This document shows, piece by piece, positions 14,387 through 20,486 of a DNA stretch of 20,820 bases. The notes under the pieces were generated by a model. That model was not told the origin of the DNA, did not search any database, and was given only the letters and a program-made list of their open reading frames with translations. The DNA is taken from positions 1,580-22,399 of the forward strand of contig CAZELK010000012.1 in NCBI GenBank assembly GCA_964513145.1. The letters run 5' to 3'. Both the position numbers and the translations under genes were made by a program. Numbering within the stretch: position 1 is the stretch's first letter; each line of letters opens with the position of its first letter. This stretch comes from Candidatus Woesearchaeota archaeon (GTDB taxonomy: Archaea > Nanobdellota > Nanobdellia > SCGC-AAA011-G17 > JACPIM01).

Positions 14387-14839
14387 TTAACCTATATAAC
14401 TTTCTGGACTAGACTTGGGATTAACTGATGGCAATGGCAAATGTGGTGGTAAATTTACTTCCTGGGATAAAGAAAGGGCTTTTATAGTTCCTTTAAATAA
14501 AATTGTATTAACTAAATGAATTGTTAATTCTTTTGATATTTTTTTGTCTTTTTTCCAGGTTTTAAATATATTTTTTATTGTCTCTTGTTCATCTAAATAA
14601 TAAATAAATCCAAGTAATTCTATTTCACCCACATTAGGTTCATATTGTAAAGAAAATTTAAAATCAAATCTTAAACCATCTGATTTAGCTTTGCCTGTAG
14701 GCAACTTTTCTTCTTGAACATCAGTTATTACTGCACTATTTTTTATTTGAATATTTGGTGTATTGTCTATTTTTGTCTTCTTTTCTACATATACTTTGCT
14801 AAAATTAAATCCCACGATTGGCATGAGGTTAACTACCAA
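14387..14839 (-). CDS. Conserved archaeal SecB-like-fold protein (likely start ATG 14824)
   Basis: MPIVGFNFSKVYVEK...FKFSLQYEPNVGEIELLG...LSQEVNLPPHLPLP pattern; immediately follows lon-C. Confidence 0.6.
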   Translation of the reverse strand: MVVNLMPIVGFNFSKVYVEKKTKIDNTPNIQIKNSAVITDVQEEKLPTGKAKSDGLRFDFKFSLQYEPNVGEIELLGFIYYLDEQETIKNIFKTWKKDKKISKELTIHLVNTILFKGTIKALSLSQEVNLPPHLPLPSVNPKSSPESYIG

Positions 14840-14845
14840 TAGTTA

Positions 14846-16216
14846 TTATTTAAATCTTTTTATTTTGTTTAAAATTTCTTCTTTACCCTTCCAATCTAAA
14901 GCTTCTTCGAGAACTTCTTGAATTGTAGACACGGAAATTATTTTTATTTTATTTTTATTTTCCTGTGATAAAATAATATCCTTCTCATTTGTTTTTGGAA
15001 CTATTACTTTTTTGATACCTGCTTCTATTGCTGCTTCTACTTTGGCTGAAACCCCACCAATTGCCATAACTTCTCCTCTGACTGACAAAGAGCCTGTCAT
15101 TGCAACATCTTGCTTAATGGGGACTTTTTCTAATGCTGAAATAATTGCTGTTGCAACTGCTATTGATGCTGAATCTCCTTCAACACCTTCATATGTTTGA
15201 ATAAATTGGACAAAAATATCATATTTTTCTTTAATATCTTCACCAAAATATTTTAGAATAATTGCTGAAACATTTTGTACTGCTTCTTTAGCTATTTTTC
15301 CTAATTTCCCAGTTGCTATAATTTCGGATTTTTTTCCACCTGGAGTAACTGCTGATTCTATTGGCAAAACTATTCCAGACATTGAAGAGTCTGAACCAAT
15401 AACTGCTAAACCATTTACTTTACCTATTTGAGTACCTGTAATTTTTATAATTTCATATTTTTTCTTGTTTTCAATATATTTGTCAGTAATTTGGTTTTCT
15501 AATGTTTTAGATAATTTCTTTGCTTTAATGATGTGCGACACATTAACTAAGTCTGCTTTTTCCTCTAATGCAACATCACCAGATGCTCTTATTAAACCAC
15601 CCAAGTCTCTTAATCTTAGAGTTAGTTTACCATATCTTCCAGTTCTTCTCCTAGCCTCTTCTATTATTACATCTACTGCTTCTTGATTGAAATGTGGAAT
15701 TTTTCCATCTTTTCTTACTTCCTGCGCAATAAACTGAACTATTTTTTCCCTATTTTCTTTATTATCATCCATTTCATTGTTCATAAAAACTTCATATCCA
15801 TAACCCCTTATTCTTGATCTCAGGGCTGGATGAATATGCTTAATTGTTTCAATATTTCCGGCTGCTACTAAGATAAAGTCACAAGGCACAGGATCACTTT
15901 TTACCATTGCACCACTAGATCGTTCAGACTGACCTGTAATAGAATATTTTTTTTCTTGTATAGCTGTTAATAGTTCTTGTTGTGATTCTGGTTTTAAATT
16001 TGAGATTTCATCTATATACAAAACACCTTTATTAGCTTTATGAATTATTCCTGGAATTAATCTTTCATATGCTGGTGTTCCTAGACCACCTGAGTTTTTT
16101 ACTAGAATTTTATTTGCAAACAAATTACCTGTGGTAGTTGTAAGATTATATAAATAACCACTATAATGTACTTTTTCTATTTTTTTTATTTTTTCAAATT
16201 TTAAACTCATCAACAT
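14846..16216 (-). CDS. lon: Lon protease (LonB) C-terminal half fused to a split-intein IntC (likely start ATG 16210)
   Basis: IntC ...[21 protein letters not shown]|SGGLGTP; Walker B LYIDEI; arginine finger LRSRI; catalytic Ser (GDSAS) and Lys (GVSAKVEA). Confidence 0.93.
16094..16216 (-). other. IntC half of the split intein (39-41 aa; blocks F/G; ends Lys-Asn, Ser+1)
   Basis: Block [18 protein letters not shown]; terminal Asn at 16096-16094 followed by TCA (Ser). Confidence 0.9.
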
Positions 16217-16232
16217 ATATAAGAGAAGAAAT

Positions 16233-16247
16233 TTTATAAATTTAACC
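16233..16247 (-). promoter_or_regulatory. BRE/TATA promoter for the IntC-lonC gene
   Basis: AAAGGTTAAA-TTTATAAA on -. The TATA 3' edge is 23 nt from ATG 16210, matching the PAC2 (24) and 14336 (23) genes. Confidence 0.65.
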
Positions 16248-16290
16248 TTTTGCTTTTATGTGTGTAGGTTCATGACATTTTGCTTTTATG
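16248..16290 (+). repeat. Two 13-bp direct repeats TTTTGCTTTTATG (30-bp period) upstream of the IntC promoter
   Basis: 16248-16260 and 16278-16290. Confidence 0.85.
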
Positions 16291-16475
16291 AGAAATTTGA
16301 TCAAAGATATAATTTCTTGATTGATTTATATTGAATAAAATTAAAAAGACTTATTATTGTAATAAATTCACTTAAAAATATGGACAAACAAGTTTTAGAT
16401 CACTATCTTGAATTTAGCAGAGAAACTTAAAATCCTAGTCCCTAATAGGCTGGGAATTTAGAAATTTATTCAGAT

Positions 16476-17280
16476 TTAATTATAAATTTCATCAAAATTT
16501 TCTTGATTTTCTATCATGTATAATGCTGCGGGAGTTAATTTTAATAAATTCATAATATTCTTCTGCGAATTGTTGGATTTTAGTAGAGAAATTTTCTGCC
16601 TTTTTATTTCTGAAAATTCATTCATTGTGTTAATCAATTTTTCTTTTTTATGAAAACAATAATTTATTTTTATTAAGGTCATAAAATTAACTACGTTTTC
16701 AAATTCTGTGGAAATTAATAATTTGTAAGTTTTTGTTGGTATCCCTTTTCTGTTTTTATGGTCTTGATCACTTAATGAAATTTTTCCAGTTTTAATAAAA
16801 TTTTCATTTAAATATAATGCAATAGAATTTAAAAAATCTAATCTATTTTGAGCTAAATCATCTTTTCCCGTAATTCCTAAAGATAGTGTATCCAGTCTGT
16901 TTTTCTTAATATGGACTTTAGGTACTCCTATCTCATTACCAAATATTGTTCCAAAAAATTCACTTTTTATTATTTTGGTACTTTTCGAAATCCATTCTGG
17001 GACAATTAATTTTATTTGGCCTTTATCTCCTATTGGCGCACCTAAAGCTTGAAAAAATCTTATTATGTTTCTGTTAGTATTTTGATAGCACCAAGAATGA
17101 CCCCATTCACCATCTTGTTTTATGATATGGTTGGTTCAAAAGTGTGGCAATTCTTTTATGGCCAAACTCAGGGTTTTCTTGCTTTATTTTTTTATAATTA
17201 TAATATAACTGAGATTGTTCTTGTTGCCATACTTGATAAGTATTTATTATATCTTGCTCTGAAATTATGTTCTCTTTCGC
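16476..17280 (-). pseudogene. Decayed intein-derived LAGLIDADG homing endonuclease between the split-intein halves
   Basis: 17280-17110 reads AKENIISEQDIINTYQ...NPEFGHKRIATLL...TRW*. A +1 frame, open 17135-16476, reads DGEWGHSWCYQNTNRNIIRFFQALGAPIGDK...EFFGTIFGNEIG...YKLLIS. The first LAGLIDADG helix is missing and there is no ATG/GTG/TTG start. Confidence 0.8.
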
Positions 17281-17406
17281 GTTACATCACCCCTGACTAT
17301 ATGAGATGATTTATTATATAAAGGCTAGGCGGGTCTTTGTCTTGTCCAGTGGTATTTATAAATAGAAGAAGTTACAACTTAAAGTAGTAAATAATTTTTA
17401 GAGAAA

Positions 17407-20184
17407 TTAATCTAGAGTTATTACTTTGTGCCAAGGTTTTAAATTTTCTGCAGCAATATATTTTATTTTATTAAAAAAATCTTTTACTGCAACTTTATGT
17501 TCTGGAGTTACAATTAATTCTTTTCCAGTTTCTGTTATTAATTTTATTAAGAATTTGTGCTTATTTTTATGTTTATTTACTGATAATACTTCAGCTTGTT
17601 CTATAGAGTTATTTTTTTCTCCAAGTACATTTAATTCCTCTTTCTCTAAATAAGAGGCTAAGTAATTTTCTTGTTTAATTAATTTATTTTTGTGCTTCTT
17701 TAATATGTTATGTACTTGTTCTTCAATTTGCTTCTCTTGTAATTGTAGTAAATTATTATTAGTTTTAGTTGTTGTAATTATTTTTACTACTGAAGAGTGA
17801 CATTGGAGAGGATCGTGCAAACAATCACCGAGTAGTGCTCCTGCGTGCGCTCCAGAAGCATCTAAAAAAGGAGATTTTCGTATTTGTGAATTATCAATTA
17901 ATAATTTTGGAACTCTTGATGTTGATTTTAATTTTCTATTTATATTTAAAAATAAAATGAAGGCTCCTAAAAAGATCATAGAACCTATTAAAGATGCTGC
18001 AGCCATTATATCCCCATATTGTCTTCTTATTAACCACGGGGTTATCATTGAAACTATAACTAAAACAAACAAAAAAGTACTTTGTTTTTTGAAAGATGTC
18101 AGGGCTTGAATTTTTGCTTTTGTTACTATTTCTTTACCTTCTCCTTTTGGTACTGTTTTTATTATTGGTGTGTTCTCGTCTAATGGATTATCAAATGAGA
18201 GAATATCTACTAATTTTTCTGCAGGAAGCAATTCTGCCAGAGCTTGCCCTAATAAGGAATTATGCACTATTAATCCCCCATTAACAACAAAGTTATGATT
18301 TGTTTCGACTTCAAAATCATATACTTCTTCTTTTACATGACTAATTTCTTTTATAGTATCAAAAAATATATCTGAGTTGGCAATTAAATTAAGTTTAGCA
18401 GTGAGATCTTCTAATTTTTGAATATTAAGATTTAATTTATTTCGGGTTTCCTTATATATATTTACTAATTTTTTTGTATTATTTAATAATAAATTTCCAT
18501 TTTCATAGATTGTCAGTGATTTTATTTTTGGAATTAATTCAGAAATTCCAGCAATATTTCGATTTATTTCAATAGATTTATTTGGCATTTCATTTAGAGA
18601 ACAAATTGTATTTAATGATGGCTCAGAAATATTATTTTTATAAAGATAAAACATTTTTTTTGATATAATTTCTTTCTTTTTGTTTATATCTGTATTAAAA
18701 TTATTAATCTTTAATTCTAATAGGTTTATATAATTCAAATGTGAAGTAAATAAATTGCGTTGTAATTTAATAAAATTTAAATCTGATTCTAAATTAGTAA
18801 TAAATCTTTTAATATATTTTCTACTTGGTTTTCTTTCGCCACGAATTATCCTGTTTATAGTCTGATTCCTTGTATTATATTTGTTGTAATTTATTTTAAT
18901 TATATCTTTTATCTCTTTTAAAATTTCTTCAATACCATAAATTAAATCAACATTTGTATGACTTTTTTTTAAAATTAAACTTTCTAGTTTTTGTTTTTTA
19001 TAATCTATTAATAAATTAAGATTTTCATTTAATTTTTTTAAATTTTCATTGCCTGTTATAGTAAGAAAATAATATATTTCTTTTTTCTTTTCTTTTGTAT
19101 TTGAAGCATATTTTAATTTTTTAGTTGTTCTTGATAAAATATTTAATTTTAACAAAATAAGTCTTAAGTTTTCTATTAATTCTTTACTTGCTGAACTTAC
19201 TTCCAACCCCTCTTTATCAAAATGCCCATCACCATCAATATATCCTGTTAAAAAGGACTTTATAATTTCTTCATTAGAATTAATGATTAAAGCAGGTATA
19301 TTTTTGAACCTCGCTTGTTTTGATAAAATCTTCCTTTTTTCGTAGTCCCAAAGTTTCTGGTCAAAATATGACTCCAATATATACACAAGAGACCTGGATT
19401 TCTTAAAAACAACTCCTTCTCTTTCAATTTCTATTAGTTCTTGTGGATAATTTAGATTCTCAATAGCTATCTTCTTTATAGTGCTTTTTATTTTTTCATT
19501 GTAATTAGATATTCGTAAACCCCTACTATAATCTCCTTCAGCTACAAACAAACCTAAAAAATAAGCTATTTCTTTATTTAATTTTTGAGGCATGCTCAAT
19601 TTAATAGAAGATCTGCCGTTTACTCCTTTATAAGAAAAAGAAATTCGCTCATTATCTTGAATATTATTATTGTTTATAAGTAACTTTCTTGTTGAACATA
19701 TAATCATTCCTTCTTTTAATAAAGAAGCATTTTTAAAGAAAAAGGATCCTTTTTCTAAGGATAATGTTGGGTGTTCGCCAGATATGACTAGTTCTGAACC
19801 AGATCTGGATTTAATGTTTAAACAAAGTTTTTGCTTATTTGATTTATATATTCTTTTTATTTTGGATTTAGTAATTTTACCTTCTTTAGTTATAGAAAAT
19901 AATAAAATTTCTTCTTTTGGCTCAATGTAAGTACCATCTTGCCTAATTTGCATTTTTTTAGGGTCTTTTGATAATAGATAATATAGGTCTTTTGCTTTTA
20001 GATTTCCTAATTCTGTTGGGATTAGCGTTTCTTTTCCAACACACTTTCCTGTGCCAGGGTCTCCTATTAAGAGAACATTTCTTCTTTGAGTAGCTGCTTT
20101 TTTTACAATTTCTAAGGCTTTATCCTGACCTATTACTTGTTCATAAGTTTTATTAGAAACTTTAATTTCTTTAGTTGATTTCAT
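17407..20184 (-). CDS. lon: Lon protease (LonB) N-terminal half with a cis intein and a C-terminal split-intein IntN
   Basis: QVIGQD; Walker A GDPGTGK|intein|S; two TM helices; GALLGDCLHDPLQ|CHSS; ends at a TAA after 131 aa of IntN. Exteins of 47+152+415 aa give about 614 aa, a normal LonB size. Confidence 0.93.
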   Translation of the reverse strand: MKSTKEIKVSNKTYEQVIGQDKALEIVKKAATQRRNVLLIGDPGTGKCVGKETLIPTELGNLKAKDLYYLLSKDPKKMQIRQDGTYIEPKEEILLFSITKEGKITKSKIKRIYKSNKQKLCLNIKSRSGSELVISGEHPTLSLEKGSFFFKNASLLKEGMIICSTRKLLINNNNIQDNERISFSYKGVNGRSSIKLSMPQKLNKEIAYFLGLFVAEGDYSRGLRISNYNEKIKSTIKKIAIENLNYPQELIEIEREGVVFKKSRSLVYILESYFDQKLWDYEKRKILSKQARFKNIPALIINSNEEIIKSFLTGYIDGDGHFDKEGLEVSSASKELIENLRLILLKLNILSRTTKKLKYASNTKEKKKEIYYFLTITGNENLKKLNENLNLLIDYKKQKLESLILKKSHTNVDLIYGIEEILKEIKDIIKINYNKYNTRNQTINRIIRGERKPSRKYIKRFITNLESDLNFIKLQRNLFTSHLNYINLLELKINNFNTDINKKKEIISKKMFYLYKNNISEPSLNTICSLNEMPNKSIEINRNIAGISELIPKIKSLTIYENGNLLLNNTKKLVNIYKETRNKLNLNIQKLEDLTAKLNLIANSDIFFDTIKEISHVKEEVYDFEVETNHNFVVNGGLIVHNSLLGQALAELLPAEKLVDILSFDNPLDENTPIIKTVPKGEGKEIVTKAKIQALTSFKKQSTFLFVLVIVSMITPWLIRRQYGDIMAAASLIGSMIFLGAFILFLNINRKLKSTSRVPKLLIDNSQIRKSPFLDASGAHAGALLGDCLHDPLQCHSSVVKIITTTKTNNNLLQLQEKQIEEQVHNILKKHKNKLIKQENYLASYLEKEELNVLGEKNNSIEQAEVLSVNKHKNKHKFLIKLITETGKELIVTPEHKVAVKDFFNKIKYIAAENLKPWHKVITLD
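17410..17802 (-). other. IntN half of the split intein (131 aa)
   Basis: Cys1 after DPLQ; block B ELIVTPEHKV; ends AENLKPWHKVITLD*, at the end of the N-terminal splicing domain. Confidence 0.9.
18259..20043 (-). other. Contiguous 595-aa intein with a LAGLIDADG endonuclease, inserted in the Walker A motif of Lon
   Basis: C1 (CVGKET); block B ISGEHP; LAGLIDADG helices FLGLFVAEGD and FLTGYIDGDG; block F/G VYDFEVETNHNFVVNGGLIVHN|S. Confidence 0.95.
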
Positions 20185-20222: not shown

Positions 20223-20486
20223 TTATAATATGTCTTCTTCTGATATTACTACGAAGTCACCTACAGCTATAACTGATGAGAAAGGTATTAGAAAACTGCC
20301 TGTTTTGTCTTTTTCTAGTGTAAGGTTTTCTATATATTGTGTTGTATTTTTTAAGATTAAATGTATTAATTCTCCAGTTCTTGTTTCAAATGTTAGATTG
20401 CCTATTTCACCAAATTTTTTGCCTGATTTAGTAACTACTGTCTTTCCTAATAGTTGTCTAGAAAATTTTTTATCTTCGTCAGCCAT
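20223..20486 (-). CDS. PRC-barrel domain protein
   Basis: LLGKTVVTKSGKKFGEIGNL...LIPFSSVIAVGDFVVI; TATA box at 20511-20518. Confidence 0.9.
   Translation of the reverse strand: MADEDKKFSRQLLGKTVVTKSGKKFGEIGNLTFETRTGELIHLILKNTTQYIENLTLEKDKTGSFLIPFSSVIAVGDFVVISEEDIL

Follow-up and report, generated by a model that had tools for sequence, protein, structure and literature searches.

How does a small archaeon make a membrane-anchored AAA+ protease whose gene is broken in two? The question is raised by a stretch of 20,820 nucleotides (nt) from a Candidatus Woesearchaeota archaeon (GenBank assembly GCA_964513145.1, contig CAZELK010000012.1, positions 1,580 to 22,399 of the forward strand), referred to here as the window, in which the lon gene for the sole LonB protease of this Woesearchaeota-type organism takes the form of two open reading frames (ORFs) lying 1190 nt apart on the minus strand. 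The first ORF ends with the N-terminal half of an intein (IntN), the second begins with the matching C-terminal half (IntC), and the two products are very probably joined after translation. The best explanation of the locus as a whole, to which we assign a probability of roughly 0.82, is that LonB is a split-intein protein and that two splicing reactions yield the enzyme. An earlier reading of the window, made from its letters without database searches (the sequence-only reading), had also proposed a functional split intein.

Anatomy of a LonB gene in two pieces

The locus is made up of the following parts, given in window coordinates, with a slash marking each splice junction.

17407..20184, minus strand: ORF A, the LonB N-half, 925 amino acids (aa), consisting of N-extein 1, intein 1, N-extein 2 and IntN, then TAA
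20044..20184, minus strand: N-extein 1, residues 1-47, up to the Walker A residues GDPGTGK (from the sequence)
18259..20043, minus strand: intein 1, 595 aa, contiguous, inside Walker A (GTGK/C ... VHN/S; from Pfam matches and boundaries)
17803..18258, minus strand: N-extein 2, residues 643-794, ending HDPLQ, with two hydrophobic helices typical of LonB
17410..17802, minus strand: IntN, 131 aa, with Cys1 and block B TPEH, beginning after DPLQ; its stop TAA is 17409..17407
14846..16216, minus strand: ORF B, the LonB C-half, 456 aa, consisting of IntC, then the C-extein
16094..16216, minus strand: IntC, 41 aa from ATG 16216, blocks F and G, ending LVKN/SGGLGT at 16094/16093
14846..16093, minus strand: C-extein, 415 aa plus stop, with Ser+1, Walker B, the LonB LID domain, and Lon_C with GDSAS and Lys (from TIGR00764 and the sequence)

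The ORF coordinates, the 131-aa IntN with its Cys1 and TxxH motif, the stop at 17407, and an IntC of 39-41 aa some 1.2 kb further on all stand as they were first read; IntC is 39 aa long if translation starts at ATG 16210, the start that is conserved in relatives. ORF A encodes Walker A and the pair of hydrophobic helices, and ORF B encodes Walker B (VLYIDE), GDSAS, and the Lys. The membrane hairpin of LonB, judged by inspection, lies in N-extein 2, which starts SLLGQALAE after intein 1. Domain matches agree with the earlier assignment of Walker A and the transmembrane anchor to one chain and of Walker B and the Ser-Lys dyad to the other: the NCBIfam LonB model TIGR00764 matches ORF A up to position 198 and ORF B over positions 195-607, the two matches abutting, and ORF B reaches 631 bits, above the model's cut-off of 516.6.

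Intein 1 is predicted to splice in cis. It matches the profiles Intein_splicing (3.6e-23) and LAGLIDADG_3 (1.9e-14) as well as intein_Nterm and intein_Cterm, and it has Cys1, a block B SGEH, a nested LAGLIDADG domain, and a canonical ...NHNF...VHN/S end. When both inteins are excised in silico, the result is a 614-aa LonB in which GTGKS, HDPLQ/SGGLGTP, VLYIDE, GDSAS, and GVSAK are all present, and which is 66-73% identical to the intein-less LonB of three genomes of the same order (our G010, G012, and G016), with zero gaps at either junction. The intein-less lon of a genome from the same genus (G002) was dropped as a reference for colinearity on account of an in-frame TAA; the stop falls after about 364 codons (locus L008, G002:C2:48134-52378) and could reflect either a broken gene or an error. 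Another relative (P0003) has its first intein three residues closer to the start of the P-loop, GEPG/C ... HN/TGKS as against GTGK/C ... HN/S in the window, and there are therefore at least two intein insertion points in LonB Walker A.

The source genome, which is 98.8% complete and comprises 18 contigs totalling 977,603 bases, holds one LonB; we found no second one at that level of completeness, the only other Lon_C match being a 270-aa protein without an ATPase domain.

The same break in many relatives

Among 40 relatives, an ORF of 455-479 aa that begins with IntC occurs in ten genomes from several genera and families, and the other genomes of that set carry a single intein-less lon frame of about 620-640 aa. 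A search at the level of the order took in 240 genomes, with a LonB junction present in 204; the IntC-first ORF (453-485 aa) is found in about 41 of these 204, representing at least 13 families, and most of the other LonB frames listed are intein-less and about 616-650 aa long. The relatives carry the names Candidatus Woesearchaeota, Nanoarchaeota, or Nanoarchaeia.

In the loci that we read, IntN is 118-132 aa long, and IntC, counted from an ATG whose position is conserved, 37-42 aa. Both the end of IntN and the ATG of IntC coincide with those of the window in G001, G003, G008, G009, G019, G029, G030, G034, and G036. The distance from the IntN stop to the IntC ATG, 1190 nt in the window, is 743, 1389, 1605, 1047, 1014, 158, 82, 42, or -4 nt in relatives, and the IntN stop itself is TAA, TGA, or TAG depending on the genome. 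A further 29 loci were read directly and, pooled with the first set, gave 30 IntN and 39 IntC sequences. Two relatives supply independent types of data: G034 is the single-cell genome SCGC AAA011-G17, in which 42 nt separate the halves, and locus L112, a variant of the split LonB with an endonuclease fused to IntN, lies on a contig with a 'ptg' name suggestive of long-read assembly.

These comparisons bear directly on whether the break is real. It might be an artefact of assembly or sequencing, or a case of recoding, with one contiguous intein precursor as the true gene; the genome is AT-rich (26% GC in the gap) and so prone to homopolymer errors, and its uncultured source is apparently represented by an assembly of 18 contigs. 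Against this, i) the gap is 1190 nt long, not a multiple of 3, and IntC is therefore in a different frame from IntN; ii) stops of all three kinds fill it, 34, 15, and 46 in the three frames, and we accordingly rejected reassignment or read-through of a stop codon; iii) the stop that ends IntN is not the same codon in every genome; iv) dozens of assemblies of independent origin, one from a single cell, share the break; and v) an unrelated gene occupies the gap in some relatives. Because a single-cell genome has the break and a contig of apparently long-read origin has a related arrangement, misassembly or homopolymer error is not credible. An artefact is thus largely refuted, and we regard it as almost certainly the wrong explanation. 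To judge from the sequences compared, the break is conserved, old, and widespread, and is not local damage; the idea of a fresh event in this genome has to be given up.

The sequence-only reading had suggested that alignment with lon from related genomes might turn up the same split or its contiguous ancestors. The split was found, but we were unable to find a fully contiguous form of the IntN/IntC intein among 26 representatives matching IntN. One candidate, a 627-aa frame before IntC in G058, was rejected when it resolved into IntC, a piece of extein, and one more split intein, inserted at a third position. LonB in that genome (locus L072, G058:C6:109000-116500) is in at least three pieces: its C-half ORF (619 aa) runs from IntC through extein to ...EAVP and then into the N-part of an intein fused to a LAGLIDADG endonuclease, where it stops, and its first gap holds an unrelated 161-aa ORF.

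Catalytic residues and fold of the intein halves

Both halves retain catalytic residues. Of the 30 IntN sequences, 23 begin with Ser, 4 with Cys (the residue in the window), and 3 with Thr at position 1; a block B T/S-x-x-H is present in all 30 (TPEH in the window); and all 39 IntC sequences end KN, followed by Ser+1 (KN/S). The combination of a nucleophile at position 1, TxxH, and a terminal Asn with Ser+1 is that of a class 1 HINT domain, and the layout on two polypeptides, with the break between blocks B and F, is that of a natural split intein. This retention of catalytic residues, together with the identical IntN stop and IntC start in dozens of assemblies, bears out the split-intein interpretation, from which we infer trans-splicing.

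Independent comparisons also place both halves among inteins. A profile of IntN matches the KlbA intein of M. jannaschii (Mja; 2jmz, 7.6e-8), and it further matches PolB and CDC21 inteins, PI-PkoII, and the Hint domains of hedgehog proteins. An AlphaFold2 (AF2) model of IntN alone has a predicted local distance difference test score (pLDDT) of 84.5, and all of its top 26 Foldseek matches in the Protein Data Bank (PDB) are inteins; the TM-scores reach only 0.3-0.43, modest values because half a domain was folded alone. IntC can be aligned, at 34% identity (E 0.002), with intein 1 over its blocks F and G.

A dead homing endonuclease gene in the gap

The DNA between the halves, which the sequence-only reading had taken to be heavily decayed, is instead a recognizable pseudogene of a free-standing LAGLIDADG homing endonuclease, consisting of two fragments and one internal deletion.

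17110..17268, minus strand: endonuclease pseudogene fragment 1, corresponding to aa 15-67 of an intact homologue, 85% identity
16479..17132, minus strand: endonuclease pseudogene fragment 2, in another frame, corresponding to aa 150-366, 71% identity, keeping LAGLIDADG motif 2

Fragment 1 has no start codon and is bounded by stops on both sides, and the deletion of about 80 codons (aa ~68-149) includes LAGLIDADG motif 1. Two LAGLIDADG motifs containing acidic residues and a double-domain alpha-beta-beta-alpha-beta-beta-alpha fold characterize these endonucleases; the window copy no longer has the full set, and the intact homologue in G003 does, its motifs being ...FGDGG... and ...GGEIG.... Intact ORFs of about 360 aa, each in its own frame, lie in the gaps of G003, G008, and G019, and the endonuclease is intact in some 11-13 more loci. 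Pfam gave no family for it and a sequence-profile search of the PDB gave no LAGLIDADG match, its identification coming only from the fold search: an AF2 model of the intact protein (pLDDT 87.8) matches E-DreI, I-DmoI, I-Tsp061I, PI-SceI, PI-PfuI, and the endonuclease part of the TliVMA intein.

Relatives show this endonuclease in several conditions. Where a single contig holds both halves (29 loci), about half have a full-length endonuclease, five have remnants (G000, G001, G120, G105, and G045), and eight have none; the 1014-nt gap of G036 resembles neither the endonuclease nor the small ORF described below. In four further proteins (P0015, P0016, P0021, and P0022) IntN continues in frame into the same endonuclease, with no IntC in the chain; for one of them (P0021, at locus L112) the IntN-endonuclease fusion is 682 aa long, and the next ORF, which overlaps it by 4 nt, begins with IntC. 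Such fusions suggest that the endonuclease came from the intein's own nested domain and not from an invading free-standing gene, and they support the earlier proposal that the split intein arose by fracture of a normal one.

An ORF of 99-102 aa with a CSCCG motif and no Pfam family accompanies the endonuclease in some loci (L035:5880-6176 in G008, L033:3665-3970 in G001). It follows the intact endonuclease in G008, is joined to a 70-codon endonuclease remnant in G001, and is reduced to its last ~30 codons in G003.

Selection on the halves

By the method of Nei and Gojobori, the ratio of non-synonymous to synonymous substitution rates (dN/dS) is 0.03-0.25 for both extein halves (N-extein 2 and C-extein), 0.04-0.24 for IntC, and 0.29-0.50 for IntN; these estimates are rough, because dS is near saturation. 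As far as sequence divergence can tell, the lon halves are under purifying selection, unlike a pseudogene, and the intein halves are constrained too, IntN less so. The undamaged state claimed for both halves is thereby upheld, and relaxed selection, against which the sequence-only reading had wanted the halves checked, is not what they show.

Might lon nevertheless be a decaying pseudogene, broken as the endonuclease region of its intein degenerated? The DNA between the halves is indeed a pseudogene in this genome, and DPANN archaea lose many genes. Yet both halves are intact and have the low dN/dS values just given, the same break is found in at least 13 families and includes loci without any gap, and this is the sole LonB of the genome. 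Pseudogene decay is largely refuted as well, and we consider it highly improbable.

IntN and the exteins do not always tell the same story in pairwise comparisons. Between G003 and G001 the exteins are 93% identical and IntN only 52%, and IntN of G003 is 63% identical to IntN of G008, a member of a different genus; the endonuclease is intact in both G003 and G008. The pattern hints at exchange of a cassette between lineages.

Candidate expression signals

The proposal that the IntC ORF has its own TATA element at the spacing usual for this genome agrees with what we find, as a match to the consensus.

16233..16240, minus strand: TATA-like TTTATAAA following a purine-rich stretch, 22 nt before ATG 16210; candidate promoter of the C-half

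The ORF of the lon N-half has TTTTAAAT 21 nt before its ATG, a similar spacing, and a similar motif precedes the IntC ATG by about 31 nt in G008, G036, G030, G018, and G009. Overlap of the two ORFs in G029 and L112 points to translational coupling at those loci instead of a separate promoter.

Splicing or docking

Several features weigh against the view that the halves splice to make LonB: i) the penultimate residue of IntC is Lys and not His; ii) alignment to intein 1 and to the family places Asn at block F position 4 (F:4), where Asp is usual, and finds no His at F:13; iii) IntN evolves far faster than the exteins, with 59% versus 82-86% identity within the genus; iv) dS is about 0.8 or higher, at or beyond saturation for several of the pairs from which selection was estimated; and v) the promoter of the C-half is assigned by a consensus match alone. 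As to the first two, F:4 and F:13 are among the less conserved positions and hold assisting residues only, and functional inteins with another penultimate (G:6) residue are documented (PMC4031507). The missing assisting residues are a real difference, which we do not hold against splicing.

The main alternative is that IntN and IntC act only as partners in non-covalent docking, keeping the LonB fragments together without any splicing. A fragmented ribonucleotide reductase reported to be held by interaction domains (PMC3045599) offers a model for such an arrangement; the break falls between Walker A and Walker B within one AAA+ module, whose non-covalent reassembly is possible in principle; and both the atypical assisting residues (Lys penultimate, block F without Asp or His) and the fast divergence of IntN would fit. 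A pure docking module, however, would need none of the nucleophile and cyclizing residues, all of which are kept in some 30-39 divergent sequences: position 1 remains a nucleophile even as its codon class shifts among Cys, Ser, and Thr, the terminal Asn is invariant, and TxxH is retained. We therefore hold docking to be improbable, and covalent trans-splicing to be quite likely.

How a complete LonB would be made

We propose that the product of ORF A, which carries the Walker A intein, would first lose intein 1 by self-excision in cis, and that the N-half would insert in the membrane through its two helices, leaving the 131-aa IntN at a cytosolic C-terminus. The C-half would be expressed from its own promoter, probably on a leaderless mRNA starting near 16210, with the 39-aa IntC at its N-terminus. 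IntN and IntC would then associate into one HINT domain, and trans-splicing using Cys1, TPEH, the terminal Asn, and Ser+1 would ligate ...HDPLQ to SGGLGTP.... The outcome would be a single 614-aa LonB chain that combines Walker A, Walker B, and the Ser-Lys site. The gap DNA would be a non-functional relic of the LAGLIDADG homing endonuclease that once belonged to the intein itself.

The present loci can be arranged in a simple evolutionary series, in which the endonuclease may initially have been nested in a contiguous intein; a break after the endonuclease may then have left it fused to IntN; a second break may have freed the endonuclease gene; that gene may have decayed, the stage seen in the window, where the start and the first catalytic motif have been lost; and it may finally have disappeared altogether. 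This order is the simplest that accommodates the loci compared, and the actual steps could have followed a different course.

We can also imagine a larger scenario with three parts, unlikely to hold in full: that a cassette of IntN, endonuclease, and IntC still passes from species to species as a split unit; that the promoter of the soluble C-half tunes the amount of active membrane LonB post-translationally, as a conditional switch; and that the Ser1/Ser+1 majority constitutes a large family of cysteine-free split inteins. Cassette mobility is suggested because the distribution of the split is patchy (G002, of the same genus, is without it) and because IntN of G003 is nearer to that of another genus. 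The conditional switch for proteolysis, which the sequence-only reading had also envisaged, has found no support so far. Split inteins without cysteine at either nucleophile position are described as rare by protein engineers.

Comparison with known fractured genes and split inteins

The closest parallel is provided by the fractured genes of Dassa et al. 2009 (PMC2677866), with the gp41-1, NrdJ-1, IMPDH-1, and other split inteins, which have much the same layout as the split LonB and, like its relatives, include loci without an endonuclease. The lon locus and its orientation fit this layout, the associated endonuclease being no more than a pseudogene in the window and an intact free-standing gene in G003, G008, G019, and others. 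Whereas the fractured genes encode marine-metagenome enzymes of DNA synthesis and repair and are associated with GIY-YIG or Vsr-like endonucleases, the gene described here encodes an archaeal membrane protease and is associated with a LAGLIDADG endonuclease; the text of PMC2677866 makes no mention of Lon, LAGLIDADG, or archaea. We regard the split LonB as a probable fractured gene of the type that Dassa et al. described, with a host protein and a lineage that are both new.

Contiguous LonB inteins that splice in cis are known from the Thermococcales, including the Pyrococcus abyssi Lon intein (O'Brien et al. 2010, cited as ref 84 in PMC4031507); they share an archaeal LonB host with the intein described here, and differ from it in being contiguous and cis-splicing. 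The literature searched, which was incomplete in coverage, yielded no description of a split Lon intein.

Two other systems invite comparison. The PolB of Nanoarchaeum equitans (Neq Pol) contains a natural split intein, in a DPANN-type archaeon, that is required for production of an essential-type enzyme. Its halves lie far apart in the genome and belong to a DNA polymerase, whereas those of LonB are adjacent, with endonuclease remnants between them; structurally, the NeqN/NeqC complex (PDB 5oxx) is a weak match to the IntN model (E 0.72). On the evidence of the genomes examined here, Neq Pol is not the only natural split intein in archaea, as the sequence-only reading had supposed. The cyanobacterial DnaE split inteins (Ssp, Npu) consist of fragments of about 102-123 and 36 aa, sizes close to the 131 and 39 aa of the LonB intein. 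Like that intein, they are broken between blocks B and F at the point where an endonuclease would be inserted; unlike it, they are bacterial, use Cys1 and Cys+1, and have unlinked halves, whereas the LonB intein has Cys1/Ser+1 in the window, Ser1/Ser+1 in most relatives, and Lys as its penultimate residue.

To our knowledge, natural split inteins are known mostly from enzymes of DNA replication and nucleotide metabolism, their hosts being cyanobacteria, phages, and a single nanoarchaeon. The membrane-anchored AAA+ protease of free-living DPANN archaea, in which the present split intein is widespread, would be a new type of host protein, and a single gene would require one cis-splicing and one trans-splicing reaction to provide a key protease in a genome of about 1 Mb. 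Because the series of fused, free-standing, decaying, and absent endonucleases is nearly complete, the origin of split inteins becomes testable by comparison. The many members with Ser1 and Ser+1 are possible tools for protein ligation, and the hosts, judged by sample names, probably come from moderate-temperature habitats such as groundwater.

Neighboring genes and other inteins

The lon gene has the same two small neighbors in all close relatives: upstream, an 87-aa PRC-barrel protein (window 20223-20486, minus strand; Pfam 1.9e-08), and downstream, a 150-aa protein without a clear family (window 14387-14839, minus strand). The 0.98-Mb genome as a whole is notably rich in inteins, the Pfam intein splicing model having 32 matches distributed over contigs C1, C2, C4, C5, C6, C7, C8, and C14, among them frames with multiple matches of 2013 aa on C6 and 1845 aa on C2.

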